Made by a program: the position numbers and the translations under genes. From NCBI GenBank assembly GCA_017444015.1, contig JAFSXN010000190.1:2618-66617 (forward strand): DNA of 64,000 nt. Reading direction: 5' to 3'. Below are positions 22,601-54,301 of this stretch, piece by piece (the first letter of the stretch is position 1; the number at the start of each line of letters is the position of its first letter). The notes under the pieces were generated by a model. The model made no database searches. It was not told the DNA's origin and saw only the letters and a program-made list of their open reading frames with translations. The DNA is from Lachnospiraceae bacterium. GTDB lineage: Bacteria; Bacillota; Clostridia; Lachnospirales; Lachnospiraceae.

Positions 22601-25600
22601 GGAAGATCAAATACGGTTTCGATCACTTCGGATAACATCTATGCGTCGCTTACCGAGCCCTTAGAGGGAATGCTGATCAATAAGAAAATAAGGATCTTCT
22701 TCTCTAAAAGAAATCTGCTTGATAACAGCCTTCTTAATAACAAGGGAGGGAGGATAGAGCTTTACCATGCAGGCTATCAGGAGGGAGATACTCCGTTAAA
22801 GACCTGGAGCCTGAACGGAAACGATAATATCGAGCTGAGGATCTCTGATGACGTTAATGATACAGAGGGCTTTGCGGAGGGCTTTACAGCCGGTCAGACC
22901 TATGCGCTGCATGAGGCAGCGGCTCCGGCTGGATTTACAGCGACGAATGACGTTATCTTTACGGTCAAAAAAGACGGAACGGTTACGCTTTCAGACCTGA
23001 ACCAGCTGAACGCCGAGCTGACCGGATCTAATTTGATCATTATGAAGGATACGCCTGTAGAGCTTACGATCTCCAAGAAGGATATGGCAAAGGAGACCCT
23101 GATTCCAAGCGGTATTGCTGGCGGGAAGCTGGCAGTTCTGAGGTATAATAACTCTACAAAGGCTGTTCTGGATCTTAAGAATAACAATAACATCAATCTC
23201 AGCCAGTTTGGAGAGGATGATATCGTAGATGTCTTTGATATTAACGGGAAAGAGCATAAGATAACCGGCAAGCTTTCGACCGGTGAATCAAACGAATACA
23301 TCCTTTGGGAAGTTTCGGCACCTAAGGGCTATTACACGGCGGATCCGATCAGGTTCTATCTGGATGAGAACGGACTGGTACAGGTCAAGGGCGGGACGAC
23401 GACCGATCCTCACATGTCGGGTCTCGGAACAAAAACGTTGAGCATGTTAGATCGGCCGATCGAGTATAAGATCAGCAAGCTGCTTACACGAACCAGCGAG
23501 TATGTCAAGGGAGCAACGCTCAGAATCTATAAGAAAGCATCGAGTCAGCTGAGTGTGTCAGGGACATCCTACTCCTATGTGAATACCGAAGCGGAAGAGA
23601 ATGCAGATATCTATGAGCGGGTCTATGAGTTGACCACCACGGGTGGTGAGAACGTGATCCAGGCGGGTATCCTTGAAGCCGGTGAGAGCTATTTAATCAC
23701 GGAGGCGGAGATTCCTGACGGCTATGTTGCATCAAGCATTAACAACGGCTCTATCAACGGGGAGCCTGTCATCGGGTCGTTTACCGTAGCGCTGTTTGAT
23801 TCAAGCGTCAAGCTGGATGAAAATGGAATTATGCCGCAAGGTACGACGGTATATAACGATCTTCTCAAGATACGCATCTCCAAGCAGTCTTCAGACGAAG
23901 CAGCGCTGCCGAACGCAAAGCTGAAGATCGTTGACGAGAGCGGGGATAATGTTCTGTATGGGCAGGAGTATATCACTACGGGTCTGGATCCTGTATTGCT
24001 GATCGGCGTTGACAAAACTACTCTAAGCCCTGAGACCTTAAAGGTCCTTTCTGAAAATGAAAATGCTCAGATCGTAGGCGCTAAGCTGGATCGTGATCAT
24101 ACCTATACGATCATAGAGACGGAGGCTCCGAGCGGTTACGCAAAGACGGAGAATCTGAGCTTTACGGTAACGAAAGAGGGGACGATTCTCTTTAACGGAG
24201 CAGAAACCGGACAGATCGTTGTTCGGGACGATGAGCTGGAGCTTACCTTTGATAAGAAGGATTCCTCCGAAGCAAGGCTTTCCGGAGCGTCTATGCAGCT
24301 GAAGCTGGGAACGGCTGTAATCGCTGAATGGACCAGCGGAGACAAGCCGGTCATCATTACAGAGGCTCCTGCAAACGAGGATGGCATCATCACCATTAAT
24401 TCGGTTGATTATACCAAGGTTGCGCCCAAGGTCAAGCTGAAGACGGGAAATAAGTATGTCCTTCATGAAGTGAGCGCGCCCGAGGGATACCATACGGCAA
24501 GAGATATAGAGCTGCCGGAGCTTAAGGATACAGATATCCGAAAGAACCTCGGGGATCCGGTGACTATGACCGACTATGAGATCGGGGAGACCTATCTTGA
24601 AGTCAGAAAGAACTGGATTGTACCAGAGGATGAAAACGACTTTGAATATCCGGAGGTTATCTTCATTGACGTTAAGAGAAAGGTGACAGGTGGAGAGAGT
24701 GAGCTTTATAAGACCTTTACCATCGAACGTTCCGAGATTCTTAACAAGGTGGATAATAAGGATGCGGTTCTGCTCAGTTTGACAAAGCTTCCGAAAAATA
24801 ACGAAGAAGGCAAGCCATATATCTATGACGCAGTGGAGAGACTTGCGGATGGAGTGAATACTTTCACTCCTTCTCAGGGAACCGCTTCGACGGACGGAGT
24901 TGTTGAGATCACAAATAAGCTCAACAAGTGGCCGGATACGGAGGTCAGTGTACTGAAGAGATGGGTTCTCTATCGAAACAGCGATGGAGAGCTGAATACG
25001 ACTCCGGTGAAGGATATCACGCTGTTACTCAGGAGAACAACGGGAGTTCGTACGCCTGCCGGCGATCCTGTGATCAGCAGAAAGACGATCACGAAGGAGG
25101 AGTATGACAGCTTCGGTGAATATGGCTTTACCTTTACAGAAGGAACGGAGCAGGGTTATGAAGGGAAGCTTCCGAAATATGATACGGAAAGCGGAAAGAA
25201 GTATGACTACTATGTGACCGAGACAAGCGATGATACTTATGACAGTGTTGTGACAACGCCTGCCGGAAACAGCATCTATGATTACATCGTTACCAATACG
25301 CCGAAAAACGGTAAGATCAATATCAACGGCGTGAAGGCATGGAGCAAGATCCCTGCGGAGGAGAGGTCCAGGCTTCCGAGGATCCGGATCGAGCTTTACA
25401 GAGATGGGCGATTCTTCGATGCTAAAGAGCTGGACGAGAATAACAGATTTATCTTCCCTGATTTGGATCGCTACGGTCTGGGCTATACAGAGGACGGAAA
25501 GATTGATGTGACTCTGTACAAGTACACGCTGAAGGAGATCAATGCCGATACCGAGGAAGAGATCAAGGATGAGGGCAGGTTCACGGTAGACATTCCGGAT

Positions 25601-30223: not shown

Positions 30224-30252
30224 TTGACACCCGGGCTGTGTTGCAGTATAGT
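30224..30252 (+). promoter_or_regulatory. Near-consensus promoter placed so that the ATPase mRNA would be leaderless
   Basis: TTGACA (30224-30229), a 17-nt spacer, TATAGT (30247-30252), 6 nt, then ATG 30259. There is no Shine-Dalgarno sequence before the ATG. Confidence 0.45.
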
Positions 30253-30258
30253 ACAGGC

Positions 30259-31739: not shown

Positions 31740-31928
31740 TCAATATATCAGCTGCGCAAACGCATACAAAGGATAATTGGTCAGCCACTCCTGCTCCCGG
31801 TAGTCTGACATAGAAATCCGTGCTCCTGACGCTTTGTATTTTTGAATAAAGGCTTTCAGGCTCTTTGCCTGCAGGTTCTCTTCCGCCTTGACTTCAATGG
31901 GCAGAACCTCATCCTTATGAATAACGGA
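31740..31928 (-). pseudogene. C-terminal fragment of a DUF4143-type AAA+ ATPase gene
   Basis: The last ~62 codons of track ORF 31740..32480 read VIHKDEVLPIEVKAEENLQAKSLKAFIQKYKASGARISMSDYREQEWLTNYPLYAFAQLIY. This is the typical tail of that family (xPIEVK...KSLxxF...PLYA). The rest of the ORF is antisense to the GGDEF gene. Confidence 0.5.
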
Positions 31929-31934
31929 AAAAAT

Positions 31935-33933: not shown

Positions 33934-34069
33934 GTCTTTATATATAGAGAATTTCTATATTTGCGCGGCTTTTCGGATCTTAGAACAAATTTGATAAGTC
34001 GTTATGTATACAAAGTTAAATGGAACAAAGAGAATTTTCATAAAAAATGAAAAGGAGCAGAGAGAGATT

Positions 34070-37000
34070 ATGATGAAGAGGAGAGGTTTCAGAACGTTTG
34101 TGGCGGTGCTGGCCCTGGTTTCAATGCTGTTAGAGAATACTTCCATGGTATTCGCTGTTGAGGGCGGCTTTGATACGGAGCAGACCGAGGTCTACGAATC
34201 GACGGATACGATCGAAACGGAAACGTCGATCGAAACGGAAACGGCCGATGTTTCGCAGAATGATTCGGAGGAAACGGAGCTTTCTGAGGAGCAGGAGACC
34301 GTACCGGATGAGGCGGAGACGCCGGAGGAAACGGCTGTGGAGCCTGTCGTAGAAATAACGACAGAAGAAAATACCGAGCCGCAGTCCTCGTCTGAGGAGG
34401 CTGCGATAACGATCAGCTCTGTTGAGGCAGTGGACGGAAGCAGGCTTGAGATATCCGGGAATGAGTATATCCCTCTTTATATCGATACCGATCAGCTGAA
34501 CAGTAAGGATACCTTCCGGCTTTCTCTGGATCTGCCGGACGGCGCTGCCTATGACGGGCTGCTTAACGGGGAGTTGTCGAAGGGAAACGGGAATATCTAC
34601 TATCTGGATAACCTTCAGAATCGTACTGCCCGGGTTTCTGTAAGGGAAGCCTCCGAGGGAGTGACTGTAGAATATACGGTTCGAGGGGATGGCTATCCGC
34701 AGATCTCCCTGACCTCCGCAGAGGAGCCTGAGCCGGAGAAGGAGCTTCGGGTTACGGAGGACGGCAAGGCGATCGAAGGAAACGGCCTTTCGGAGCTGAC
34801 GATAACTTTAGACGGCTCAGCGCTGAACAGCAGGCTTTCCTACAGCCTCTATATCGGAACCGACGCGGCGGTTACTTATGAAGGAACTGCGGTAAACGGG
34901 TCCATCACCGGTTTAACGAAGAATACAAAGACGATTTCTCTCTCTGATCTGGATTATCAGTCCTTTACGATATATGCGGCCGGCGAGAATACGAATACGA
35001 TCGCCGCGGATTACTCCATTGACTCTGTAAACAACAGCGCCGTTCGTATCAAGCTGTACGATTCCGGCGAGGAACAGAAGGTAAAGCGTGACTATACTTA
35101 CGAAGATGAGCTCGTCTATGTCACGGCGACGCTGGAAAGGGCGGATGCTGTGCCGGATGATGCTTATTTTTCCGTGACCAGGGTAGAGCCTGAGTCTCAC
35201 GAGTATGACTATGATTCATATATGGATGCTCTGAATGAGAACTCGGAGGACGGGACAGAGTATAGCGGGGAAAATACAGTTCTCTATGATATTACGTTCT
35301 ATACGGATGAGACAAAGACCGTAGAGATCGAGCCGGAGGAGGGTTCCGTTACGGTTTCGATCCGATTCAAAGAAAATCAGTTGGATACAGGTCTCGGAGC
35401 AGAGGCAGAGGGTACTCTGGAGATCAATCATCTGACGGAGACAGAGGATACCATAGCTGTAGAGAATATAGAGACGGAAACCGTTGTAGAAAACGGAGAG
35501 GTCAGCTTTGTCACGGAGAGCTTCTCGATCTATTCCGCTACCTATAGCAAGGCGACAACAAGTTACGATCTGACGTACAGCGATGACAGCATCGAGGTCA
35601 CTGTAAAGCTCCCGAAGGAGGAGGCGGAAAAGAACAGCGTCCTGTCAAATTATCTCGGAGATAATCTGAGCGGAAACGGGCTGAAGCTCCGTGTGTTTAA
35701 GCGAGACGGAAGCTGGTACAACGATACAAAGGCGGTAGTCAGAGAGCTTATCACAAGTAAGAAAATCTTTGGGAATTCGATTACTACGGATGATGTAAAA
35801 TATTTAAACAGTGATAATTGGGACAGCTATATCTGGGTGTTCCCCTATGAGCTTGTTCTTTGGGGAACCGTCAGGGATCAGTGGAACAGCTGGGAGGATT
35901 ATCTCTGCTCTCTGAAGGACTTTGAAGGCGTAGAGGTGTCCTTTACTTTTAAAAATCCTACTCTTCAAAAGCTGATCAGCGATTGCCAGGGCGCGGATGT
36001 TTCGACGATCCAGGTAGATCTGGCAGACAGCTTTTATTCCGCGAATAACCAATATAACCCCGGTTCCTACGGTATTTCAAACGTTGATCAGAGTAATACG
36101 AAAAGGGTATTGGACGGAGCTTCGTACAGTAACAACGGCGATAATCTGACCTTCGAACTCAACGGGGCTTCCGATATTATTACCGTCGTCCTGAAGAAAT
36201 CGGTTTCGGATCCTGTAGGTTATACCTCCGCTACAGCGAATCAGAAAAAAGTAGTTTTTGATTCAAACGGAGGTTCTTTGGTTGAAACGCAGCTGGTCGA
36301 GGAGGGAAAGACCGCCTCGGAGCCCTCTGCTCCGACAAAGGATGGCTGTGTATTTCAGGGATGGTATAACGGAAATACTGCCTATAGCTTCAGTACCCCG
36401 GTTACTTCCAATATTACATTGAAAGCAAAATGGGACAAAAATACGGTTACCTTTGTCAGCAACGGAAACAGCACAGCGACCCTGGTAGCAAACGGCACCG
36501 CAGTTCAGAGACCGAGTGATCCGATCAAGAGCCATCACACGTTTTCCGGTTGGTATTTTGGGGATACGGAATATAACTTCAGTACTCCGGTAACAGAGGA
36601 TATTGTTTTGACCGCGAAGTTTGAATACGCTTCGCAGGCAAGCGTTTATACTCCGGGAACGAGCTACACCTACAGGGAGATCCTGGGCGATGCTGTATAC
36701 TATGGGGTAACGGCCAATACGGTTTCACCGAACGCGCATATGGATTCCAATATGGCGGCCGGTCTGGTCAACGGAAATTCCGATACGACGCAGGGTGTGT
36801 ATACAGGGAATCACAACCCGGGCAATTCGATCGCCGCGACAGTAAACGGCAGTTGGTTTACCAGAGCGGAGGGAGAAAAAGCTTTTACAATTTTCGTGGG
36901 GGAGGAGTATGTAGACTCTCTGGCGCAGAACCTTCTCTGCCGGGTATCCGATTACAGACTGACGTTTAACGGAGAAACCATATCGATCCATCTGCCGGAT

Positions 37001-40000
37001 GTCAAGAGAAGACAGGAATCGAATGGAAGCTTCTATTACTATATTAACGAGAATGATACAAAGTTTGACGGGGAAGCGGGACAGGCTCTTCTTGCCAGAT
37101 GCTGGAGATATAAAGAGTACAGTGGATCAAAGCATATTACACTGGATTCCGCGAGCCATACCAGCGGTGAATTAAAAGCTGCTGTAAGAGGTATGGTCAC
37201 AGGAACAAAGTCAGAAAGTCTGGCAGGAGAAGCACAGGCGTATAATTTCGCGGATATAGCAGATTACTATGCGCAGGATAAGGACGTTCCCGAAGGAAGC
37301 GGAGAAACGGCAGGGAAGTATACGATCGATCTTCGTAACAGCCCGGCGGGAACCTACTATGTGAATTTTGCCGCGGGAGAGTACGCCAGTAAGGTTGGCG
37401 GATCTGCGGATGGTCTGCATATCCGGCTGAACAGTAATCAGAATATAGTTTTCAACATTCCGGATACAAATGTTTCGCTCAATCAGTTCAGTCTGGATAT
37501 CGGAAACGGAGCCGGCTACCGGACCTCCGGAAAAAATAATGAGGGTGATGATGACTATGCTAAAAGCGTGGTCTGGAATTTATACAATGCTACGACCGCA
37601 TCGAATTCCGGGTCGATCAACGGCATTGTCTTGGCACCTTTAGCAGCGTACAGCATCGGGACGACTTCTACAGGATGGGTTGTTGCTGATTCCGTCAGCA
37701 ACGGCGGAGAGTGGCACTGTGTCTGGCAGGAAATGCCTGCAAATCCCGCTGAACCGGAAGAACCGGGAGTCGATACCCCGGCTACAGTAGAGATCCCTGT
37801 CAGCAAGAGCTTTGCGGAGGGGGCTGCCTGGCCGGAGGGTGATTCCTATACCTTTACCCTGACAGGTCAGACGACAAGAACGGTTGAAACGACGAGCACG
37901 GGGAGCTGTTATACGGCTACTGCCCGGATCCATCAGACTCCGGAGACCGGCAGGGAGGATTATCGGATCCAGGTCGATGCGATCCATGGAGGAGATCACA
38001 CTACCGATCTTCAAACGGTGAAGATCGCCTTTAATCAGCCGGTACAATGGGTTTCCTGCAATGCGCAGGGAGCTGCGTTAGTAAGCGGCAGCGGAACGAA
38101 CCAGCTGACCTTTACTACGACTTATCATCAGAATCCGACGGATCGGATCGGTTTCGGCGATCTGGTTGTTACTTCGGATGGAGGTCTTGCCGTTACGGAC
38201 ATCGAAGTGACGGATGGATACGGAACAACTACGGTTACGGGATCGGAAACGATCACTGCGGAGACGGAGGCGGGATCGGTTACGATTGGGGCCGCTGCCG
38301 GTACAGGCTCGATCGGTCCTCTGACCTTTGAGCCGGCAGATACTGCCGGAACAGTTTCCTATTATTATACCTTGGCCGAAAATGAGCCGGAGTATTCTGA
38401 CGTGATCAGGGACCCGAAGGTCTATGAGATCAGGGTCGACGTCACGACTATGATTTCCGGAAAGAATAGGACGGCAACCGCGAAGATTTATTATAAGAAC
38501 ACGAACGGGGATTATGTCGAGCTTCCCGCGGGACAGAGCTTTACCTTTGAAAACAGGATCTCCGCAGGTCATACTCCCGCGCAGGTCACCTTTAATGTTG
38601 CAAAGAGCTATCAGGGAGATTGGACCGGTAAGAGCTTTACCTTTACTATTTCCGGAAGTGAGGGCGCGCCGATGCCGAAAAAGGATGGCCAGACCGTTAC
38701 TTCTGTTACAACTGCAGCGGACAGCAGTCAGGGAAACAGTCAGACCCTGAGCTTCGGGACGATCGAATTTGCGGCGGGGGACAGCGATACAAGCGCGAAT
38801 AAAGTTCCCTATACCTATACGATTACGGAAACGCCAGGTACGGATCCGGATATCGCGTATGACCCGACGATATATACGATCACATTAAATACCTATACGG
38901 TCAAAGAGGGAAATAACTGGGTCGCCAAGGTCGAAAAGGAAGGGGCGGACAGCACGGAAAGCTATACCGGCGAGACTCTGAGCTTTGAAAACAAGATCGC
39001 TACCGGGAATCTTACGGTACAGAAGAGTGTGACCGGATGGTGGAGAATCACCTGCGAGCGGATGGGGAACGAAGCGTCGGTCGCAGATCCGGTCTTTGGA
39101 CCTAACCATACCCATAGAAAGATCTACTGCGGCGATCCGAGCCACTGGAGGATCGATCTGGATGAAAACGGAGTTCCGACGAAGCTGACGGAGATCGACA
39201 CACCGTATCCGACCTATAATAATGGCGAGCTGCCCTGCGTTATCTATACGGATGATACCTATACTACCGTACGGGATATCAGTACGATCAGGCAGGGCGA
39301 GACCATTTACTGGACTTCGGTGCATGACGGGATCAAGGTGCAGTGGCGTCATTATGGTACCGTAGAAAGCACAGGATCCTTCGATTTTACCGTTTCGAAG
39401 GATGATACCTATTACTATATGGAGAACGGAGTAGTCAAAGAAAGCAGTTCTCCTGTATCGTTTTCGCTGGAGGCCGGAGAAAAGGTTGATTTTACGGGCC
39501 TTCCGGTTGGAGAATATACGGTTACGGAGCTCGGCTCTGAGAATATCTTTACCGTTTCCGTAAAGGATGGGGAAGGCTCTGTACTTCAGACGTCGGCAAA
39601 CGGTACGGATACTTCAGCGACCGTGAATGTCACGGCAGGAGAAACTTCTGCGACCGTCAATTTTGTCAATCAGCTGACAGCCGGGACGCTTCGGATCAAG
39701 AAAAATGTCAATCCAGGCACTGTGGATTATTCCGGGCAGAACTTCTATGTACGGGTAACAGGGCCATATGACTTTGACGAGCTGCTAACCCTGACGATCG
39801 ATGAGGAGGGGAAGGCGTCTGTTGCGCTTACGGATCTTCCGGTTGGTACCTATACGGTACAGGAGACCAATGCGGACGGGATCCCGCTTGCGCAGGATAC
39901 TCCTTACAAGATCCATATGTGGGGATACGGACAGGGCGACAACTGGTCAAATAACGCTTCGATCAATCTGACAGGAGGAAGCGATATCACTGTCCGGATC

Positions 40001-43000
40001 AGCAATACGATAGGAAGCCTGCAGGTCAATAAGACGTTAGTTCCTACGAACAGTACAGCTCTGTCGGATACGTTCTATTTTGCGGTCACGGACGGAACAA
40101 ACTACTACGATACACAAGGAAATGCGTATACAGAGCGGCATGTAGAAGCCCTGAGCTTTGAAAACGTTACGCAGGAAACGACACAATCGCTGCTCTTCAA
40201 GAATCTCCCTCTGGACAGGAAGTATTCTGTCAGGGAGCAGATGGCTGTTTCAGAAAACGGGGCGACCTCCTATGTGGATGCTGACAGCAGCAATGCGGAC
40301 TTTAACTATCAGGTTGCCTATGAAACGGTCAACTGGGCATCTTCCGGATATTATACGGTCCAGGGAGCGGACAATATAGAAGCGATCACCGGAGATAAAG
40401 GAAACAGGCCTCTGGTCAACGTCAATATAACAAATACCGAGAAGCAGTATAGTGAGATCAATATCCATAAAGGCGGATATCATTCTAATCTCGGGGGCGT
40501 CGTCTTTGAACTGACCAGGAATGGGAAGCCTGTCGTTGCGGAGTTAGTCAGTACCGATCCAGAGAACAATACCTATCATTTTGTTTCCGCGGACGGATCT
40601 GCGGAAGCCACAAGGCTTGTTACCGGCAGCCAGGGGCAGGTTGGGATCCACGAGCTGCCCTGGGGCGAATATTACATCAAGGAGGTCGATACCGCAACGG
40701 GCTATGTGGTCAGCGAGGATGCCTGGCTGTATGTCAATATCAAGGATTATCCGAGCGGACACGCACTGAGCGGAGATAATGAGATAAAGGCGGGAAGTGC
40801 TTTTACGGGCTTCTCGGCAACGAGCTTTGGAAAGGGTTCTGTAAGCTGCGGCGGTAATGTCATAAATGACAAGGGCCAGTTTGAGCTTATGGTGACAAAG
40901 ACAGGCGACGGCGCGCCGCTTGCCGGAGCGGAGTTTACGCTTTATAAGGCGGATGGGACGACTGCGTTAGAGACCCAGACGATCACTGCCAGATACGACG
41001 GCACTGAGGAAAATAAGGTTGTTGCCGCAACGGCTAAGTTCAGTACGAAGTTAGACTGGGATGAGACCTATATCTTAAAGGAAACAAAGGTTCCGGAGGG
41101 CTATGTAAAAGCGGCGGATCAGACCATCGCGCTTTCAGCTGACGATTACGCTGCGCTTTCGAATTCGACGTATTCCCTTACGATCGACAACAAGAGGATC
41201 GAGGGTCAGGTTACTCTTACAAAGCATGACAGCGCGGGCACGGGACTTTCCGGTGGTGAATTTGAGATCCATAAGGGTGAGGCGGTGATCGGTGTCCTTC
41301 AGGGGGAAGGCGGTGACGGTCACTATACATACGCAAACGGCGCGGAAGGCGCGGTAACGACGATTAAGACGGATACAGACGGGAACGCTGTCGTTACGGG
41401 GCTTCCTTATGGTAACTATACATTTGTAGAAACTAAAACACCGGATGATTCGAAGTATTCAAAGGACGCAGAGCAGAGCTTTGCCATTGTTGATGACGGC
41501 GATCAGGCAGCGGTTGTCATGGTAAATACGACGAATCCGGCGGCGGTTCAGTTTAAGAAGGTGGATGCCACGACCGGACGGCCGATCAAGGATGTTCCCT
41601 TCTATCTCTATAAGGCGGATAAGACCCTGTACAGGGCAACGCCCTATTTATCAGGCGCGGACGGGATCGTTCGGGCGGAGAATCTGGCAACAGGCTCCTA
41701 CTATTTCGAGGAGCGGTTCTATGACAGCGAAGGGAAGGAGATCGACCCTGATAACGGGTATCAGAAGTTGTCAGAGAGCGATAATCATTTCGCCTTTACG
41801 ATCACGGAGTCGGATGGCGGAAGTACGGTGACGCTGACAGAGAATAACGTTACGACGTTAGAAAACGGGATCGCTGTTGTAAAGAACGAGCAGGGCAAAG
41901 GAACCGTTACGGTTACGAAGCGCAAGGATACGGCGGACGGCGATCTGATTTCCGGGATCACCTTTGAGCTGTACCAGACTGACGCTTCAAAGAGTACCGA
42001 GATCAAGCAGAGCATGAAGCAGTACAAAGGCGTTACATCGGACGGTGTTGTAACATTTACCGGGCTTGACTGGGGCTGGTATTTCCTGCGTGAAGTACAG
42101 AATGACGCTACAAGGCCTTATATTCTTACGAATAACGGGATATCTGATGTCTTCTATGTCGGGCTGGACGTTGAGGGCGGAAGCGCGAATATAGAAAAGA
42201 CAATTATCAATAGTATTAAAAAGGGTTCTGTTCATCTGACCAAGGTGGATGAGGAGACGAAGGCTGCTTTGAGCGGCGCTGTCTTTACTCTTTATAAGGA
42301 TGAGGTAAAGGCCGGAAATGAAATCGGCGGAGAGAACGGTGTCTCGATCACTAATGCCGCGGGTATTACGATCGATAACCTGGAATATGGGAATTACCTC
42401 CTTAAAGAAACCTCTGCTCCGGCCGGCTATCAGCCGCTGCAGAATCCGATCGCCTTTACGATCGACGGAGAAGCGGAAAGGGATTCCTCCTATGACGCGG
42501 TGAAAGAGATTCCGAATCCCCGGAAGACAGGGACGGTGACTCTGACCAAGTATTCCGGATCAGAGAAAATCCAAATAGCAAATGAGGAGGACCGCGGAGA
42601 ATTCACGCTTTATTCGGCGGATGCCGCAAGCTTTGGCAGCAGGATAAAGAGGCTGTTCTCCGGAACGGATTATTACGAATACGGTACCTATACGCTGGGA
42701 GCTGACGGAACGCTGACCGTATCAGACCTTCCATGGGGCAGCTATTACTTTGCGGAGACCAAGGCGCCCAAGGGCTATGTAGCGGATGAAAATAAGGAAT
42801 ATCCGTTCACGATCGGCCTGATCGAGGATAACGGTAATAAGACGGAGAGCTTTGAGGTCTCGTATGATGTTACAAATACCGAGAAACCCGGGAAGATCCG
42901 CCTGGTGAAGCAGGATAACGCTGAGGACAGAGACGCGGACCTGACAGGCGCGGAGTTCAAGCTCTTTAAGATCACGGATACGGAGGCGGAGGATCTGCTT

Positions 43001-46000
43001 TCGGCGGATAACGCGACGCAGTATCCGAACGATTCCGTGACCTATACGATCGGGGAGAATAACCAGCTGATCGTTGACAACGTAGAGTGGGGCACCTATT
43101 ACTTTGAAGAGATAAAGCCTGCGACGGGCTACAGACTTCCTTCAGACAGAGTAAACCGCCTGACTCAAACGATCGTTATAGGCGCGGATAATGCCGTGGA
43201 TTCCATCGGAAGAAACGATACGGCAAATACGATCGTCTTCGGAAACGATAAGGTCGAGGGAACGATCCGGCTTCAGAAGGTAGATGAGAACAATGAAAAC
43301 CTTGCCGGAGCAACCTTCTATATCAATGTTAAGACAGATCGGGGAGAGAGAAATGTCAAGCTTACCGGGTCAAACGGTGTATACAGCTATGACGGGCTCC
43401 ACGATGGCCTGTTTGACAGAAATTCAAAGGATATCGCTGATACAGACGGAGACGGGCTCTTAGTTGTAAATAATCTGCCTTACGGAACCTATGAGGTTTA
43501 CGAGGCTTCCGCTCCCGATGGCTATAATCTGGTAGAAACGCCGAAGGAATTTACGATCTCCGAGGACGGACAGGGGACCGGGGAGGACGCAGAGCCTGAG
43601 CTGTTCGTTAACAGCCCTGTCCAGGCGAAGGTCAGCTTCTATAAGATCGGAGACGGGGAAGACGGCCAGAAGAAGGGACTTGCCGGCGCGATCTTCCATC
43701 TGTATAAGAGCGAGGAGAACGAGGCAGGAACGACAAGCTGGATCAGCATCGGAACAAAGACCTCGGAGAGCGACGGACTCGTAGAGTTCGGCGGTCTTGC
43801 GGTCGGAGATTACTATGTCGTAGAGGATAAGGCTCCCGAAGGATATACGATCACGATGGACGGTGACGAGCCGAAGAAATATACCTTTACGGTCGGAAAT
43901 AACGATGACGGAGCAACGAAGCAGATCTCGCCCGCGGTAGCTTTTGGCGACGGAAAGATCGGTGTCAATAACGCACAGGCAAAAGGTACCGTAAAGCTGT
44001 TCAAGTCAGGCAGCAACGCGCCGCTGACCGGTCTGAACGGAGCGAAATACGCTCTGTATCAGGAGGGAACCGATACGCAGATCTTTGCTGAGCTTGAGAC
44101 CGGATATTCCTATACGAAGGGCGAGACTACAGGGACGGCAGGCGAGGCCGGCTATCTCACGGTTTCGGGGCTTGACTGGGGTACCTATTATTTCATTGAG
44201 ACATCCGCGCCGGAGGGCTATAAAGCGGATACGAAGACAAAATATACCTTTAAGGTCGATTCATCCAATACAGGGACGCGAGTTCTGTATCCCGGAACGG
44301 GAGAGGAGCAGACTGAGGGGAAGATCATTACAACGGATACGGGAGGGAATGATCTGAAGGTCGTCAATGAACAGATCCTCGGACAGGCGAAGCTCACGAA
44401 GAAGAACAGCGTTACGAAGGCTGTGATCGAGGGAGCTACCTTCCGACTTTACTATGATACGGAGGATTCCCAGGCTGCGCCTCAGCTGGTGGCCGGATAT
44501 GAAAATACGTCCTTTGTAACGGACAATAAGGGTGAGATCAAGACTTCAAAGGATCTGCCGGTCGGAAAATACTACTTTGCGGAGACGAGTCCGATGACCG
44601 GTTATATCGCTTCGGTTACAAAGTATGCCTTTGAGGTAAATGAGAGCAACTATATAAACGTTATTCCCGCGTCGGACAAGACCGGAACCGAAGAGGGAGT
44701 TGCCCTGAATCAGCCGATTCTCGGAAAAGTGAAGCTCTTCAAGTATGAGACGGTGGACGGAGAAGAGGTTGCGATCACCGGCAAGGCGAAATTCCGGCTC
44801 TACAAAGAGAGCAGGATCCTCTGGTTTAATTCCAGCCAGAAGTTGGATATCTATGAGACCACGGATGGCTATATCACGGTGGAGGATCTGGAATGGGGCA
44901 CCTATTACTTTGTAGAAGAAGAGGCTCCGAAAGGCTATGTAGAGAACAAGGACGCAAGGTATATCTTTACCATCGACGGCGATCGGACGGATTATACGAC
45001 CGCGTCGACTATGCTGAAGGTAGAGAATGAGCGGCAGAAGGGCTCTTTAAAGCTGAAAAAGACGGATGAAGAGACAGGCAGCGCATTAAAGGGCGCGGAA
45101 TTTAACCTTTATAAAGGCGTCTATGGCAGCGGAACGCCTGTAGCCGGAGCGCAGGGGCTGGTTACGGACAGCAAGGGCGAGATCACAGTCACCGGCCTTG
45201 ACTGGGGTCAGTATTACTTCGTGGAAACGCAGGCGCCGACCGGATATACGCTGAAAAATGACAGCTACGTGGACAGCTATACCACGGAGGAAGCCGGTCA
45301 GACGGTATCGCGCAAGCTGATTATTGACGCGAACAATGTTGAGGCAAGCGCAAAGGCTCCGTTAACTGCTGCTCTTACGAACGGGCAGATCTACGGAAAC
45401 GTAAGGCTGACCAAGTATGATGACAAGACTCCGGCCGGAACGCTTGGCGGGGCTCGCTTTGAACTATATACGACAGCGGATGCGCGGGTATATGTGAGCG
45501 GAGAGAACGGAGCATATCAGTACAGTAAGGACGAGACGAGTGTTGTTCTTGAAACGCCGTCGACTTCGGATAATACGAACGGTATCTTAACGATCACAGG
45601 GCTGCCGTACGGAAACTATTACTTTAAGGAAATCAAGGCTCCGGAGGGTTATACGGCAACCTCCGTCCGTTCCTCCTTCAGTATCGAGGAGAATAAGGAC
45701 GGCTTTGTCGACGTGACCTGTATGAACGGCGAAATCAAGGGCGCGGTTGAATTTACGAAGCTTTCGGATGACGAAACGCCGATTGAGGACGCGAAGTTTA
45801 TCCTTTATAAGAAAGCAACGAAAAACAACGGACTGGCGCCTGCCGTGATCGGAGAGTATCATTCCGATTCTGCAGGAAAGGTTTCGGCAGCGGGTCTTAC
45901 TGTGGGTGAATATTACTTCACAGAGCAGAGCACGCCGCATGATGCATGGGAGCTGAGTACGGAAGCGCTGAGCTTTGAAATAACAGACAGCGATAACGGA

Positions 46001-49000
46001 AAGGTAATCTATCTGGGAAGCGGAGATGATCATCGTGTCGTAAATACACGAAAGCAAGGCTCCGTCAGACTGTTAAAGACCTATCGTGACGACGATGAGA
46101 CCGGGGTTCTCGAGGGAGCCGGCTTCAGGCTGTACCGTATGGCAGGATCGGAGCCTGCCTCCGGAGATGAACTGGTTCTGATCAACAGCCAGGAAAGCGC
46201 CGTTACCGATGAAAAGGGCGAGATCAATGTTACTGGACTGCCTTGGGGCGACTATTACTTCGTAGAGATCTCCGCTCCTGATGGCTATGTATTTGATCCG
46301 GTTGCGGCGGAGACGACGTACTACCGTTTCCGGGTGGATGAGACGACAGCCGCTGCAATGCAGACGGTTTCGGTTGAAAACGAGAGACAGACCGGAAGCC
46401 TTACGATCTCGAAGCTGGATTCTACGGATCACACGAAGGGCCTTGATGGTGTAGCCTTTAACCTCTATAAGATAATAAAGGACAGTGACGGGAAGGAAGA
46501 ACGTACGTTAAAGGCTACGTTAGCTACGTCCTCAGGCGGACAGCTTTCCTACAGCGGACTGCCCTGGGGAGATTACGTTCTGGTAGAGACCGGAACGATA
46601 AACGGCTATGTTCTGGATACGGCATCCGCGGAGCATCCGTTTACGATCGGTAAGAAGAACGACAGGCTCGTTCTGGAATATACCGAAACGATCACCAATC
46701 GTCCGGTTCAGGGCTATGTTGAGCTGGCGAAGGTGGATTCTGAAAACAACAATATCGTCCTTGGCGGCGTTGCTTTCGATCTCTATTCCGGGATCGCGGG
46801 GAGCGGAACGAAGGTCGGCGAATATATGACCGATGCTGCCGGAAAGCTGTTCCAGACTGTTAAAAACGGCGACGGGACAGAGAAGACAGAGACGAAGATC
46901 GGACCTTTGAACAAAGGAAATTACTATTTCCTTGAAAACGCGGACCGTTCTACGCTGAAGGGCTATCAGTTCAGTGATCAGGCGATCTCGTTCGCGATTA
47001 CTGAGGATGGTAAGACGATCTCCTTTACGGGAAATACGAATTCGATCAAGAATACGAAGAAGACCGGCAAGGTACGGATCAGAAAGATCGACAGCGAGAC
47101 GAAGGACGGGCTGGCGGGAGCGGAGTTTACGCTTTACGCAAGGGAGCCGAAGTCCCTGGGTGAGAGGCTGGCATCCTTACTGACGGATGAATTTAAGAGA
47201 CAGACCTATACGACAAAGAGCGATGGTGTGATCGAGATCGAAGGCCTGGATTGGGGAAAATATTTCCTGGCAGAGACCAAGGCGGCTCCGGGGTATGAGC
47301 TGCTTGCGGACAGTGACGGGAAGAGCGTTACCTATGACTTTGAGATCACAGAGGCGAATGCCGGATCGACGATCGTTCTGAATGATATCACGAATACGAA
47401 GCTGAAGGGCTCCGTACAGTTGACAAAGACGGATGAAGAGACGAATGCGCCGGTAGCCGGAGCGAAGTTTAAGCTCTATAAGATGACGGGAAGCGAGCCT
47501 GTTCTTTCCGGAACGAACGCCGATACAGCCGTTTCTGTTGACGGTGATTCCGAGTGGACGACAAACGACAAGGGCGTTATCCTTGTACCCGGACTTGACT
47601 GGGGCAGCTACTATTTCGTTGAGACAGCGCCTGCCAGGGGGTATGAGGAATTTGAAGAAAACAGCGTCGTTTCCGCGGTTATGACGATCGACGCTTCAAA
47701 TTACAACACCGGCTCTAAGGCTATGAATACGCAGACGGTAGCTCTTACGAATAAGAAGGGCTATGGCTATATCTCGCTGCAGAAGATCTTTGTGAACCCG
47801 GATAAGAACGGGTCGACCGGAGTATACTGGAGCGTTGCCTGCGACGTGATGGATAACGCGAAATGGGCAGGTTCGGATGTCGGTGTCTGGGGCGCGGATG
47901 AGATCCGCAATACCGAAAAGAATAAGAACCGTGAAGGCCATCAGAAGATCTACTGCGGGACCGAAGAGAACCAGCTGATCTATATGGATGACAACGGTGT
48001 ACCGACCGGTATGCTTCATGATAAGAGGGGTTCTACCAGTGAGCGTTACGCCTACGGTGATATCAACACCAAGCTGTATACCGATGAAACGTATCAAACG
48101 GAAAGAGATTTCTCTACGTTAAAATCCGGTGAGTATATCTATTGGACGACCTGGAACGGCGGCCAGAAATGGTATCATCACGGAACGATCGAACAGACGC
48201 TTCATCTGACGGATGAACAGGTGGAAAGCCTGTATTATCCTCCCGATGATTCCGGCTGGGATCTGAGCGGAGTGACCTACCGTCTGATCAATGATGATAC
48301 GAGCAAGATCGTCGGTGAATATGTTACCAATTCGGACGGAGTTCTGACAAACGGCGAGGGCGAACCGGTGATCGGACCGCTTGCGTACGGGACCTATCAT
48401 TTTGAAGAGGTTGCTTTGTCCGACAGAGCCAAGGCAGCAGGCTATCAGTTAAGCAGCCAGCTGGCGAGCTTTGTCATCAGTAAGGAGAGTACGTTAGAAC
48501 ACGCCATATCGAATCCGCTTCCGTATGTCAATCACGTCATGGATGTGAAGGGCGGAGCGACCTTCCAGAAGGTTGACGCGGACAATGAAAATACGATCGT
48601 AAAGGGAATTTCCTTCAAGGTCTACCAGGACGGCGCTACGGATCCGACAACGACTGTTGTTTCGGATGAGAACGGTACCGTAAAGGTAGAGAATCTTCCG
48701 ATGGGTACCTATTACTTCGAGGAGGATGGAGATACCGCGAGGAACGCGGGCTATGTACCCGATACGACGAAGTACTACTTCCGGATCACCCAGTATGACA
48801 ACGGCAAGACCCTGTCTGTACATAAGGACAGCGTTTCCGGAGATCTTACGGGTACGGTAACGAATGAAAAGCAGAAGGGAAGTATTTCTCTTGCCAAGCT
48901 TGGGCATGATGATAAGAAGCTTCCTCTGGCAAGGACAGTCTCTGACGGCGGAGCGCAGTTTGAGCTGTGGAGCAGTCTCAGTGACACCGAGCCTTACTAT

Positions 49001-52000
49001 ACCGCCGACAAGCTGATGAGCGGAGGCTCTGATAACAAGGGAACGATAGAAAACAACGGGATGACGATCACCGTTTCGGGTCTGCCGTGGGCGACATATT
49101 ACTTCAGGGAAACCGCAGCGCCGACCGGTTATGTGCTTCCGGCTGCCGGAAACAGAGATACCAACAGCGTTACGATCTATGCAGGAAACGCCTATGCTTC
49201 CGTTTCGGAGCCGTTATCCTGTACAAAGAGTGATTTGGCGCTGAAGGTCAAGCTCTCCAAGCTCGATGAGAATAACAATGAGCTGATCGGCGCGACCTTA
49301 GAGCTGTATAAGGCGGATGCAGACGGCAAGCGGACGGGAGCCGCCATCGACTCCTGGACGAGCGGAGGATCGCCAAGGACCTTTACCGCAGCTGTCGGAA
49401 ATGAAGAGGGACTTGCGGCCGGACAGGGCTACGTACTGCATGAGGCGCAGGCACCCGCAGGCTATACGCTTTCGGATGATATCTGGTTCCGAGTAGCTTC
49501 TGACGGGACAGTGACAGCCAAATATGTATCGACCGGAACACAGGCAGGCATGATCGGTGAGGGAATCGGTACGACGATCACAATGACAGATACGCCGATC
49601 GAGCTTTCGATCTCCAAGAAAGCATGGGAGAGCGGGAACATGCCGCCGTCATCGATGGAGAATCTGTCTGGAGCAATGCTTCAGATCAAAGAAAAAGCGT
49701 CCTCCAGAGTCGTGGAATCCTGGACAAGCAACGGCACGAACCATAAGGTAGCCGCAAGTCTTTCGGTCGGAACGGAGTATGTTCTCGAGGAAACCTCCGC
49801 GCCGACAGGATATATTAAGATTTCGCCGATCACCTTTACGATAGACGGAAAGGGAGATATCAGGGCGCAGGCGGAGAACGGTACCGATCTTTCGCCGGAT
49901 AACAACAATCATATATTATATGCTGTTGACAGACCGATCTTTATTCAGATCGCAAAGACCAGACTGACCGGCTCGGAAACGGATTATGTATCGGGAGCGA
50001 AGCTGGCTGTCTATGAAGTATTAAGTGACGGGACGCTTTCGGCGCAGCCGGTGGTTCCGGAGTTTACGACGAAAGGCGTTTTAGAGACCATCGATTCCTC
50101 GAAGCTGAAGGTGGGCAGCGCTTACCGTCTGGTAGAGCTTTCCGCTCCGGATGAGTATCTGAAGGCGGAGCCGGTGACCTTTGTAGTGAAGGATTACGAT
50201 CCGACAATACAGACTACGGACGGGCGTCAGCCTCAGATCATAAAGATGAAGGATGAGCTGTTAAAGGTTTATGTTCAAAAGCAGGGTCTCGGAGAACAGC
50301 TGGCCGGAGCCTCCCTCCAGCTCTTAGACAGCTCCGGTGAAGTAGTGGCAGAGTGGAAGACTGAGAATAGGCCCGCGGCGATCGTATCCTCTACGGAGGT
50401 CGCAAACGAACAGGAGCTGAACCTTTCGGATTATCAGGTCGTTTCGACGAAGGAAGGAAAGACCTTAAAGGCAGGTGTATCCTACCGGCTCGTTGAACTG
50501 TCTGACAAAACGCATCCTGTACCTGCCGGATACAATGCGGCAAATGCTGTAAACTTTACGTTACAGAACAATACAACGGTTGTTAAGACGGTAACGATGA
50601 CAGACCAGCCGCTTGCTGTTGCCTTTGGAAAGAAGAGTACGAGCGGATATCTTGCCGGCGCGACGATGCAGCTTTTGACAGAGAAGAATAAGGAAGATAC
50701 GGCAATTGCGCAGTGGCGGACCACAGATAAGCCTGTGATCGTTACTCTGGGTACCATTGCCGAGGATTCCAAGTATGAGAAGCTGGAGCTTTCAAAGGGT
50801 GTTCTGGAACTTGGAAAGACCTATTATCTCCATGAGAAGACCGACGGAGTTCCAAGCGGATATTACCACGCGGATGATATTCCGGTTACGATTGACAATA
50901 CGGATATTTTGAGTACGTACGTCCGTGAGGTCGATATGGTCGATGTTGAGCAGGGTAAGACCAGCGTTCCTGTAAGCAAGACCTGGATCATTCCGAGAGA
51001 CGCAAACGGCAACCCGGCAAGTGACTTTACGGCAAGGACCGCGGTAATAGAGCTGTACAGAGATTCGACGACAAAGGGTAAGTCGGAGGATCTGGTCGCA
51101 ACATATAATATGACCTGGCCGGAAACGAACTATACCTTCGCGCAGTATCAGGTGAACAATGAGTGGAGGGATCTGGAGAAGAACAGCCCTGCGGGATATG
51201 AGTACACCTATAAGGTTGTCGAAAAAGAAACCGAAGCGATCAAGGCTGACTTCAATATTATTTATGATTCAACACCGGGCGTGATCATTAACCGGACGCT
51301 GCCGAAGGTGACTGATCTGACGGTTACAAAGACCTGGCAGTGGTATAAGGACAGCGATACGGCACCGCAGGATGTGACCGTATATCTGCTTCAGAACGGC
51401 ACAAGGATGGCCTCTCATACCTTTGCCTTTGACAAAAAGGATATCACTGTTGGAAATACCTTTGTTTCACAGCCGTTTACCTTTGAGAGTCTGCCGAAAT
51501 ACAATACGGATACCGGACTGGAATATGTCTATACGGTTGAGGAAGAGGGGACCGGCTTTACTTCACAGATCAGTTATGACAGGACCGAGAGGACCGCGTC
51601 GATCTTAAATGTGCCGGATGAGACACCGTTCTATATAAGCGGTAAAAAGACCTGGATCGATCCTACGGACAAGGAAGTAACTCATCCGCAGATCGTACTG
51701 GCGCTCTACAGAGACGGCGAGCCGTATCTCTATACGGAGCTCGATGAGAAGGATGAATTTACCTTCGGTCCACTCTATCAGTATAATCTGGGACACGGCG
51801 GCGGAGCCGATAACCTTGAAACCGCTGACGGACATCCGTATACCTATGAAGTTAAGGAGATCGGAGCAGCAGGCTATGATGTTACGATCACCTACGGAGA
51901 AAACAGCGGTAACTATGATCCTGCTCAGATTACGGGCGGAAATCTTGCCGTGAACGTAGAAAACAGGATCAAAAATGAAACGATCAACATTGCCGGAGTG

Positions 52001-54301
52001 AAATACTGGAGAGACAGAGGCGACGCCGGCAGGCGGCCGGACAGCGTTACCTTTGAGCTGTTCCGGGACGATGTGAGGTTAGAGGATCATACCGCGACGA
52101 TACAGACACCGAACATTGAGTTCAGGTTTGACGGGCTTACAAAGTATAAGTATGAAGGCGGCAAGGCGATACCTTATGTCTATACGGTAAAGGAACAGGC
52201 GCTGGATGGCTATGTTACTTATCCGGATGCAGGGATCGTAGTTAACAATGATTATCTGACAGGTCTCAATACCTACTCGGGAGTCAACTTTACGAATACC
52301 CCGACGGCGGTCAATCTGTCCAAGGTAGACCAGTCTGTGATCGTGGATGCCGAGACGGAGAGAAAGGCTGAGCTGACCGGAGCGGTAATGGAGCTCTACG
52401 CGTTGTCAGAGGGCGAAGGAAGCAGCGTAAAGGGTGAGGTACTGCAACGTTGGGTATCCGGCCTGACACCACACTATGTCGAAGGCCTGCCGTATGGCTG
52501 GTATCGTCTGGTCGAAGCGGATTCTCCTGAGAAATACTGGGATTCAGAACCGATCGACTTTGAGATCACCGCGAATGATATCCTGACTGAGAGTAAGGAT
52601 GTTCAGTTAGTTACCATGGAGGATGAACCGATCATCGGAGAGGTCAGCCTCCAGAAGATGGATGAAAATAAAACGGATCGTCTTGGCGGCGCGGAGTTTG
52701 AGCTGTTTACAGAAGCGGGTGCTCCGGTCAATGTGAAGGAAGCGGTTTCCGCAAACGGCGTTTCCAACAGCGGTCAGTACGAGTATTCCGCGCAGAGTAC
52801 CGCGGTAACGACGACAACGCTGAAGACGACGGCTCTGGGAGATCTGAATGTAACCGGCCTGCCGTACGGAACCTATTACTTTAAGGAGTCCAAGGCACCG
52901 AAGGGTTATGAGCTGAATAACAACAATGAGGTCTTCTCGGTTTCCATCGCCACTGCTTCGAGAGCAGCTGTTGATAAGGAAAGCAAGGATTATAAGAAGA
53001 GTTCCGTCACCGTATACGATAAGAAGAAGACCGGCGCGGTAAGGCTCTTAAAGTCCGATGAGGAAGGAAAAGAGCTTGCGGGAGCGACCTTTGAGCTGTA
53101 TTCACCGGTTGCAAGGACCGGAGTCCAGGCGGTTCTCGGATCGGCGTATCAGGATCCCTGGTATCGTTACGGAACGTATACGACCAATGAGCTGGGTGAG
53201 ATCTATGAGGACGGTCTGCCCTGGGGTCAGTACTACTTTATCGAAACAGAAGCGCCGGATGGTTATCTGATCCTTCCGGATATTGATGAGGACCTGAGCG
53301 CGAGAGTATTTACCTTTGAGGTAGACGCGAACTGGGTAGAAGAAACGGCGGCACCGATCGTTAACGACGAGGCACCGATCGTAAATATCAAAGACAGGAC
53401 CGGCGGCGGAACAACGCCGACACCTGGGCCTGGAGGCGAGGGCGGAACAACACCGACACCCGGACCTGGAGGAGAGGGCGGAACAACACCGACACCTGGA
53501 CCTGGAGGCGAGGGCGGAACAACACCGACACCCGGACCTGGAGGAGAAGGCGGAACAACGCCGACACCGGGACCTGGAGGCGAGGGCGGAACGACGCCGA
53601 CACCTGGGCCTGGAGGCGAGGGCGGAACGACACCGACACCTGGGCCTGGAGGAGAAGGCGGAACAACACCGACACCCGGACCCGGAGGAGAGGGTGGAAT
53701 TACACCTACGCCTGCACCTACTTCCGAGCCGGGCGGAGGAATAACGCCTACCCCGACTATAGTGCCTACGACGGTTATAACGGTAACGCCGACACCTACC
53801 ATTTTGCCGGTTATAACAACAACGCCTGCGCCGACACGGGCCAGGGTAACTGAGGGACCTACTCCGACCGTTACGCCGGAGCCTACCGAGGAGCCCACGC
53901 CTGTTCCGGGAGTGACCGATGAGCCGATACCGACGGAGGTTGTAGTAGTTGTAGTTACGGAGACACCGACGTATACGCCGACTCCTACTGCTACACCGAC
54001 AGCTGCCGCTACTCCGACTGTTGCTCCGACGCTTCGGCCTACCGTAACCCCTACGGCTACCGTTACTCCGATTCCTACAGCGGCAGTGCTGGGGGCGAGA
54101 AGAACGCAGCCCGGCGGAGTCGTCGCGGGAGTTCTGGGAGTAAGGAGCGCGCCTACGCAGGGTGTGCTCGGAGCAAGAGTAGGACCTGTGACGGGCGACG
54201 CAGCAAATATCGCTCTCTGGCTGATCATTCTTTCGGCCAGCATCGGAGCGGTGATCCTGATCCTTGTTCAGTCTTCGAAGAAAAAGAAGGCAGGAAAATA
54301 A
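34070..54301 (+). CDS. Giant cell-surface adhesin (6743 aa), paralog of 7637..27799
   Basis: Uninterrupted ORF. ATGATGAAG at 34070 mirrors the start of gene 1, and AGGAG lies upstream. The signal peptide [29 protein letters not shown] is alignable with that of gene 1. It has the same domain order, about 24 SpaA-like repeats, and the C-terminus VGPVTGD, a TM helix, then KKKKAGK. The track ORF begins at an upstream in-frame ATG, 34004. Confidence 0.97.
36245..36630 (+). other. Two Listeria-Bacteroides repeat (Flg_new-type) domains, present only in giant protein 2
   Basis: [61 protein letters not shown] and [59 protein letters not shown]. Both carry the F-x-GW...F-x-TP[IV]...[IL]-x-L-x-AK[WF] signature. 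Confidence 0.65.
36685..37735 (+). other. Choice-of-anchor-A-like segment of giant protein 2
   Basis: [27 protein letters not shown] ... [10 protein letters not shown]...[35 protein letters not shown]. Alignable with 9921-10825. Confidence 0.4.
40441..49235 (+). repeat. Array of ~24 tandem SpaA/prealbumin-like domains in giant protein 2
   Basis: Examples: [28 protein letters not shown]...[15 protein letters not shown] and [29 protein letters not shown]...[19 protein letters not shown]. Confidence 0.75.
50955..52230 (+). other. Cna-B-type domains in giant protein 2
   Basis: [18 protein letters not shown]...[66 protein letters not shown] and [30 protein letters not shown]. Confidence 0.6.
53408..53695 (+). 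repeat. In-frame tandem repeat, 36-nt unit x 8, within the PT/G-rich stalk at 53399-54079
   Basis: GGAACAACGCCGACACCTGGGCCTGGAGGCGAGGGC and near-identical copies that differ only at synonymous positions. They encode [12 protein letters not shown] eight times. Confidence 0.95.
54179..54298 (+). other. C-terminal cell-wall sorting signal of giant protein 2
   Basis: [40 protein letters not shown]. Confidence 0.65.

Follow-up and report, generated by a model that had tools for sequence, protein, structure and literature searches.

Does a single repeat in the stalk of a giant surface adhesin carry a domain of its own, and if so, what might that domain do? This question is raised by a 64,000-nucleotide stretch of DNA from a Lachnospiraceae bacterium (contig JAFSXN010000190.1, positions 2,618 to 66,617; the whole stretch is called the window hereafter). 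Its forward strand encodes two paralogous giant adhesins, protein 1 (7637..27799, 6720 residues) and protein 2 (34004..54301, 6765 residues), the latter a sortase-type surface adhesin. An earlier note on this DNA had pointed to positions 47813-48262, where one SpaA domain of protein 2 appeared to be interrupted by a Cys/His module, the third copy of such a module in the window, which was missing from the equivalent domain of protein 1. The note had proposed that the module is a discrete unit, open to gain or loss and located within the first loop of an immunoglobulin (Ig) fold. The giant adhesins of gut Lachnospiraceae, with their many SpaA repeats, are generally taken to be uniform stalks. 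As described below, it was found that single repeats can carry side-domains and that the paralogous adhesins differ in which repeats carry the module.

An interrupted SpaA domain in protein 2

Nucleotides 47813-48262 are in frame 0 of the open reading frame (ORF) 34004..54301 and encode residues 4604-4753 of protein 2; the translation quoted in the earlier note, through to PPDDSGWD, matches these residues exactly. Strand A of the host SpaA/CnaB domain lies just upstream (47759..47794, residues 4586-4597), and its Lys4594 (47783-47785) falls in the column of the isopeptide Lys. The rest of the host domain lies downstream (48263..48541, residues 4754-4846), with Glu4802 (48407-48409) and Asn4843 (48530-48532) in the columns of the catalytic Glu and the isopeptide Asn. 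These three residues align with conserved columns of 11 neighbouring domains. When a SpaA profile was built from the window's own domains, the host was matched in two pieces, residues 4588 to about 4603 at profile positions 1-12 and residues 4745-4823 at positions 12-82. The Pfam SpaA profile (PF17802) matched only the part of the host after the insert, at profile positions 13-79 (E = 2.6e-6). In the structural model, this host has a prealbumin-like fold with predicted local distance difference test (pLDDT) values of 78-95. Foldseek matched the host part to hydroxyisourate hydrolase, transthyretin, and the B domains of SdrD with a probability of 0.9-0.99, but with E values of only about 0.01-0.08. 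Thus, in its Pfam match, its Lys/Glu/Asn columns, and its fold, the host resembles the isopeptide domains of the SpaA (PF17802), Cna_B, and DUF7601 families, and it differs from them by an interruption of about 155 residues. The host is an isopeptide-type SpaA/CnaB domain that retains the Lys/Glu/Asn set, for which the bond itself is predicted from sequence. The repeat is about the 24th of some 30 in protein 2 and is situated deep in the stalk.

Are the two host domains of proteins 1 and 2 really equivalent? The host domain of protein 2 minus its insert was scored against all SpaA domains of protein 1, protein 2, and three giant relatives. The best domain of protein 1 was that at residues 4671-4765 (score 144; runner-up 99), which has no module. 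Higher scores were obtained with residues 4774-4852 of the relative P0002 (246) and residues 838-912 of P0021 (180), both of which have a module, and a lower score was obtained with residues 4546-4639 of P0057 (116), which does not. Since the domain of protein 1 has the best score among the domains of that protein and also lies on the colinear diagonal, the two host domains are equivalent. The colinear alignment stops within strand A, at residue 4596 of protein 2 and residue 4679 of protein 1. Similarly, the alignment of protein 2 with P0057 jumps from residue 4633 to residue 4773 of protein 2, with the P0057 side ungapped. A MAFFT alignment of the five host domains gave the same picture. In protein 1 (21641..21997, residues 4669-4787) and P0057, strand A (YGYVRLKKSF), a 12-residue loop (SPLADNSNAITK in protein 1), and LSGIEFKLID follow one another without interruption, whereas protein 2, P0002, and P0021 have 130-155 extra residues at that point. 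After the insertion point, the five domains share the body 'LSGxxFRLIN ... GPLxYGTYxFxE ... AGY'. Thus, the scores, the diagonal, and the MAFFT alignment all uphold the equivalence claimed before.

Relative to protein 1, the insertion proper comprises residues from about 4598 to 4753 of protein 2, or about 155 residues, after strand A. The end of the insert had been placed correctly in the earlier note, and its start had been placed some six residues too late. The core of the module (47822..48202, residues 4607-4733) contains four near-invariant residues, Cys4613 (47840-47842), His4646 (47939-47941), Cys4651 (47954-47956), and His4725 (48176-48178). In addition, His4672 (48017-48019) is found where the other members of the family mostly have a Glu residue. 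The core is followed by a return linker (48203..48262, residues 4734-4753), modelled with low confidence, which was found only in modules of the copy-3 type (protein 2, P0002, and P0021).

When was the module inserted? P0002 is a colinear orthologue of protein 2 with 39% identity, and it has the module at the same site. The insertion must be ancient because it is common to these two distant orthologues, and a recent mobile insertion is ruled out for the same reason. At this one host domain, the module has indeed been gained or lost, as proposed, being present in protein 2, P0002, and P0021 and absent from protein 1 and P0057; one gain or one loss accounts equally well for this distribution. 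The nearest-neighbour identities of copy 3 to giant, mid-size, and free-standing members are flat (0.42-0.47), which fits intragenic duplication and independent acquisition alike. As a separate observation, the N-terminal module copy of P0002 (residues 1692-1802), which has an insertion of its own after 'ELYFITT', gave a weak profile match (32 bits, positions 8-102) that ends before the final His-x-Gly; this copy may be degenerate.

A widespread domain family

Is the module found elsewhere? A phmmer search with the insert found residues 1680-1809 of protein 2 (copy 2, E = 3e-20) and residues 1569-1685 of protein 1 (copy 1, E = 1e-7). Copy 2 (39026..39376, residues 1675-1791) follows strand A (GNLTVQKSV) of a SpaA-like domain that comes after an FctA-like domain, and copy 1 (12299..12661, residues 1555-1675) follows strand A (ASLIIGKEI) at the equivalent site of protein 1. 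I then searched 1.84 billion representative proteins with a profile of the three window copies. Counted as clusters at 50% identity, 126 matched with E <= 1e-3, 43 of them with E <= 1e-10, and E values reached 1e-26 in unrelated proteins; an iterated profile gave full-length matches at 60-137 bits. The module is therefore a widespread family of at least 126 clusters without annotation.

About 45 of the clusters are surface proteins with a nested or embedded module, and about 80 are free-standing proteins of about 140 (135-155) residues. Of 60 nested modules, 52 are preceded, no more than 16 residues upstream, by a strand-A motif with a final Lys or Asn (for example, 'SLIINKxL', 'ITVTKQL', or 'IVLQKTL'), which bears out the assignment of the module to the first loop. 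In the copy-3 type, the Lys of 'SLQK' lies a few residues further upstream. Downstream of the nested modules, the remainder of a SpaA- or DUF7601-like domain follows, ending in '...VxFxNE'. In P0007, P0008, and P0032, the module is un-nested, with acidic linkers on both sides and no host domain. Taken together, these un-nested copies and the free-standing form show that the module folds independently. Thus, the module occurs in free-standing, un-nested, and nested forms, as expected of a discrete unit.

Several searches were negative. A word-indexed homologue search with copy 3 alone gave no match, and one with the nested alignment A5 found only seven small proteins. No relative was found in a single-protein scan of GTDB genomes, and no match was found in two IMG/VR scans, the INPHARED phage collection, or the PLSDB plasmids. 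No significant match of the module was found in Pfam, NCBIfam, or PHROGs. Even at E <= 10, Pfam gave no family for copy 3 or copy 2, and only NLPC_P60 (E = 0.07) for copy 1. Searches of PDB sequences with the profiles A2 and A3 gave only tag-like artefacts. In the literature on ScmC, SynChlorMet, HprK with radical S-adenosylmethionine (SAM) enzymes, and Lachnospiraceae SpaA giants, no description of the family or of the gene clusters described below was found. At least 126 clusters at 50% identity are thus missing from Pfam, NCBIfam, PHROGs, and the PDB, and the family merits a family model and a structure.

L010 (8001-9176) and L011 (8001-9887) encode small sortase-type proteins with a nested module on contigs of low GC content (31-35%). 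These genes have in-frame TAG codons, which are given as Gln in the database proteins, and the neighbours of the L011 gene match PHROG tail-fibre and phage RNA-binding families. The in-frame TAG codons and the phage neighbours in L011 identify the two contigs as TAG-recoded phage genomes encoding a cell-wall-anchored module protein for the surface of the host. With the patterns tried, no counterpart of these contigs was found in INPHARED or IMG/VR.

Conserved residues and predicted fold

The near-invariant signature of the family is Cys...His-x4-Cys-Gly...His-x-Gly, and six columns are invariant in an alignment of 74 sequences. Among 185 near-full-length members, and with the numbering of protein 2, Cys4651 is retained in 100%, Cys4613 and Gly4652 in 99%, His4725 in 98%, Gly4727 in 97%, and His4646 in 96%, the exceptions at His4646 resembling shifted alignments. 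The Tyr-Trp-x-Thr motif (4713-4716) is retained in 91-94%. The column of His4672 is Glu in 94% and otherwise His, Gln, Ala, or Thr. A second pair of Cys residues is complete in 117 members, wholly missing in 47, and mismatched in 21; this pair tracks the free-standing form. The invariant cysteines are conspicuous in their context, since proteins 1 and 2 contain only 15-16 Cys residues in about 6,700 residues. In protein 2, the two modules cover 4% of the sequence and contain five of the 16 Cys residues (binomial P = 3e-4). The Cys-His-Cys-His signature therefore stands out in these Cys-avoiding proteins and pinpoints the residues to mutate.

An AlphaFold2 model of the two domains, host and module, was obtained with the 74-sequence alignment at moderate confidence (mean pLDDT 74.9); a single-sequence model was poor (pLDDT 45). 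In the former, the module core (pLDDT 80-95) is predicted to have six strands and one four-residue helix (model residues 69-72) that ends at Cys4651. Confidence was low for a copy-3-specific loop (residues ~4620-4640) and for the return linker (residues 4734-4753). When the two-domain model was compared with the PDB and with BFVD by Foldseek, no match reached E <= 1e-3. Matches to norovirus P domains were weak, of low probability, and with a root-mean-square deviation around 18 Å.

Free-standing relatives and radical-SAM gene clusters

What accompanies the module when it stands alone? The free-standing proteins have no signal peptide. Their sequences open with 'MKKxWxxPxxxxExFxANEYVAAC', of which the stretch up to NEY is the leader, and the last residue is an invariant Ser ('...HPNRS' or '...NHS'). 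I inspected six genomic contexts. Five are those of the module genes at L003 8001-8420, L005 8001-8438, L006 6001-6432, L007 6001-6435, and L009 6001-6420. In five of the six, the cluster includes a closely related radical-SAM enzyme of about 370 residues, directly downstream of the module gene in three of those five. The best NCBIfam similarities of these enzymes are to the SPASM-type AhbD, NirJ2, and ScmE, all below the cut-offs. Other genes of the clusters variably include those for PqqD-like, ScmC (PF27840, HprK-related), NTP_transf_5, and S24 peptidase proteins and, once, an ATP-binding cassette transporter; the NCBIfam scores of the cluster genes are all far below the family cut-offs. 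The sixth context (L001, 7591-8423) has only a gene for a PqqD/ScmD-like protein of 137 residues, which the module gene follows with a 4-base overlap. No radical-SAM gene was found in the L001 DNA shown, which covers 8 kb upstream and, as far as the contig extends, about 4 kb downstream. This 12.7-kb locus, on a contig of 132.7 kb, also has a TonB-dependent-receptor gene.

Two further genes on the reverse strand, L005 2196-2666 and L006 5434-5808, encode proteins with the same leader and a C-terminal Ser ('...NHS' and '...AIS') but with cores unrelated to the module, and each adjoins its own radical-SAM and ScmC pair. This organisation suggests a system of one leader and variable cores.

In lasso-peptide precursors, the C-terminal Ser is phosphorylated by an HprK-type kinase, and the phosphate then receives a hexose through a nucleotidyltransferase of the kind found in these clusters (PMC6993621). 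The analogy suggests that the free-standing module proteins probably serve a pathway of this type as substrates of protein size, and their C-terminal Ser may be phosphorylated and then glycosylated. The SynChlorMet cassette (ScmC/ScmD/ScmE/ScmF) and the lasso-peptide clusters with an HprK-type kinase and PsmN resemble the neighbourhoods of the free-standing relatives only. Paeninodin and pseudomycoidin also end in a Ser, which in their case is phosphorylated and then glycosylated (PMC6993621). In contrast to those systems, the presumed substrate here is a folded domain of about 115 residues rather than a short peptide, and the machinery is not found beside the adhesin genes of the window. The free-standing relatives have the leader and the neighbouring genes of leader-guided radical-SAM substrates, whereas the window copies have no leader, and none of the genes in the 64-kb window is homologous to these radical-SAM, ScmC, or PqqD genes. 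The link to radical-SAM, PqqD, and HprK-like proteins raises the question of whether a whole folded domain undergoes leader-guided maturation of the kind known for peptides that are made by the ribosome and modified after translation (RiPPs).

What is the module for?

The explanation that I favour, with about even credence, is that the module is an autonomous, mostly-beta Cys/His domain of about 115-130 residues that occupies the A-B loop of one isopeptide-type SpaA/CnaB domain in the stalk and serves as a load-shielded binding head. The first and last strands of CnaB-type domains are joined by a Lys-Asn isopeptide bond. The module would lie between the strand-A Lys and the last-strand Asn of the host, in the loop closed by this bond. 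If the bond forms, tensile load would pass through it and bypass the module, so that the stalk would remain intact and the module would not be pulled apart. The module itself would project sideways from the stalk as an adhesive head that binds a ligand. Its four invariant residues and the acidic or His/Gln position (His4672 here) may form a structural metal site, or a disulfide and a His site, and in both cases its first strand would be tied to its last. According to a survey of isopeptide bonds, disulfides accompany such bonds chiefly in Actinomycetota and in several Gram-negative phyla (PMC12617251). I lean towards a metal site because proteins 1 and 2 otherwise exclude Cys and because that survey places such disulfides mainly elsewhere. 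A location at the cell surface is supported by the signal peptide and sorting signal and by the annotation of relatives as Cna B-type proteins of Lachnospiraceae.

Some points weigh against this explanation. Host strand A was not predicted as a strand in the alignment-based model (pLDDT 50-58), so its docking onto the host is taken from sequence homology. The binding, metal, and disulfide roles are putative, and the invariant Cys and His residues would fit a catalytic centre equally well. Weak sub-threshold matches to CHAP or NlpC/P60 were found in four of the 74 members. Because the free-standing relatives adjoin radical-SAM enzymes, the cysteines may be modification sites instead of metal ligands.

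Is the module then a small Cys-His enzyme mounted on the stalk, such as a papain-like, CHAP, or NlpC/P60-like amidase, peptidase, or transglutaminase, with Cys4651 as the nucleophile and His4725 as the base? The order of Cys and His is the same, and the hairpin G-(D/E)-x-I-Y-W-T-T...W-H-H-x-G-x-V resembles, by eye, GDlvff...HVgiy around the catalytic His of NlpC/P60 and CHAP; many members also have a His or polar residue 9-11 residues past the invariant His. However, the Pfam matches (NLPC_P60 for copy 1 as given above; CHAP in three members and NLPC_P60 in one, best E = 0.013) are all far below the gathering thresholds, and no NlpC/P60 or CHAP structure is among the Foldseek PDB matches listed, although the PDB holds many. 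The predicted structure around the Cys is also non-canonical, Cys4651 being modelled at the end of the four-residue helix and followed by a strand, not at the start of a long helix. Moreover, the module has a second invariant Cys and His, and neither this Cys nor the His-x4-Cys spacing has an equivalent in the papain-like clan. An enzyme of this type is unlikely, and I consider it somewhat less likely still that the cysteines are sites of enzymatic cross-links, such as thioether bridges that a radical-SAM enzyme from another part of the genome would introduce, with the adhesin copies maturing like the free-standing relatives. The latter idea draws on the clustering of radical-SAM, PqqD-like, and ScmC genes with free-standing homologues in five of six contexts and on the invariant cysteines common to the nested and free-standing forms. 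It is at odds with the lack of such genes in the window and with the adhesin copies, which have neither the leader nor the C-terminal Ser of the free-standing form. The Cys pair specific to the free-standing form would be a likelier enzyme target than the invariant pair, but it is missing from most nested copies. In addition, a Sec-exported protein of 6,700 residues is an unlikely substrate for a leader-guided maturase.

An invariant Cys in otherwise Cys-avoiding proteins, in an adhesin and nested in a CnaB-type domain as in Spy0125 (PMC12617251), also recalls the reactive Cys of the thioester domains by which Gram-positive adhesins attach covalently. Such a role is improbable; there is no invariant Gln column and hence no partner for a Cys-Gln thioester, no Pfam thioester-domain match was obtained even at E <= 10, and no thioester-domain structure is among the Foldseek matches listed. 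Known thioester domains are also about twice the size of the module. This candidate was rejected for the want of an invariant Gln and of a Pfam match. Finally, the segment might not be a real domain but a low-complexity or disordered linker, a chance similarity, an intein, or a bacterial intein-like (BIL) element. The low model confidence at residues ~4620-4640 and 4734-4753 and a length of about 150 residues, similar to that of mini-inteins, would be in line with this. Nevertheless, 126 homologous clusters with E values to 1e-26 in unrelated proteins, the confidently modelled core, and the persistence of the module as an expressed free-standing protein family speak against it. An intein would start with a nucleophilic Cys, Ser, or Thr and end in His-Asn, and the segment does neither; the first Cys (Cys4613) is the tenth residue of the insert as quoted in the earlier note and the seventh of the core defined by the hidden Markov model. 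There was no Hint/intein match in Pfam and none among the Foldseek matches listed. A linker or an intein is refuted by the homology and conservation data and can practically be dismissed, and the earlier view of the segment as more than a low-complexity linker holds.

Beyond the load-shielded binding head, a broader and distinctly more tentative reading may be considered, in which the module is a new fold and family with a Cys-His-Cys-His centre that bacteria and their phages put to three uses. It would be a load-shielded side-head on the stalks of giant adhesins from gut bacteria, a part of sortase-anchored proteins of TAG-recoded phages, and the folded core of leader-guided, protein-sized products. 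Maturation of these products would fall to a radical-SAM enzyme and, at the invariant C-terminal Ser, to an HprK-like kinase and a nucleotidyltransferase. If this is true, the activity behind all three uses, be it metal-dependent binding or the action of a reactive centre, would be a new mechanism of adhesion or antagonism.

Comparison with known nested domains

The nesting of a domain in an isopeptide Ig domain is a known architecture, and it is the module family itself that is new. In RrgA, a von Willebrand factor A (vWFA) domain interrupts a CnaA-like host, and in Spy0125/Cpa (PDB 2XID), a thioester domain interrupts a SpaA-type CnaB domain; the CnaA and CnaB folds both tolerate insertions of adhesion domains in their loops (PMC12617251, PMC7835359). 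As in RrgA and Spy0125, the module would be a head domain in a loop of an isopeptide-type Ig-like host, between the bond-forming residues. Unlike the inserts of these proteins, the module belongs to none of the known families, vWFA and thioester domains included, and copy 3 of it lies deep in the stalk, not at the tip. The site also differs from that in Spy0125, where the insert lies before the last strand according to the listed domain ranges (PMC12617251), whereas the module follows strand A.

Other features of the window

Proteins 1 and 2 each have a signal peptide, about 30 Pfam SpaA (PF17802) domains, and additional FctA and Cna_B domains. Near-identical and related public proteins are labelled 'Cna B-type domain-containing protein' or 'hypothetical protein' and come from metagenome-assembled genomes of Lachnospiraceae. 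The C-terminal sorting signal is VGPTTGD in protein 1 and VGPVTGD in protein 2; behind it come a hydrophobic segment, membrane-spanning in protein 2, and a basic tail. Thus, both giants have a non-canonical signal in place of LPXTG (window 27600-27799 and 54100-54301), and repeated 'GVLGxR' motifs precede it.

The ORF of protein 2 starts 22 codons upstream of the stretch that aligns with the start of protein 1 (window 34004-34072), and residues 23-526 of protein 2 are 50% identical to residues 1-521 of protein 1. Because protein 2 aligns to the start of protein 1 only from residue 23, its true start codon is probably near nucleotide 34070, judging from this alignment. Three genes for AAA/ATPase_2-type ATPases flank the two adhesin genes (window 986-2431, 27979-29568, and 30238-31704), and one of these ATPases has a C-terminal PD-(D/E)XK nuclease domain. 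Directly upstream of the gene for protein 2 (window 31842-33863), there is a gene for a protein with a periplasmic-binding domain and a GGDEF diguanylate cyclase domain, through which cyclic di-GMP may control the adhesin.

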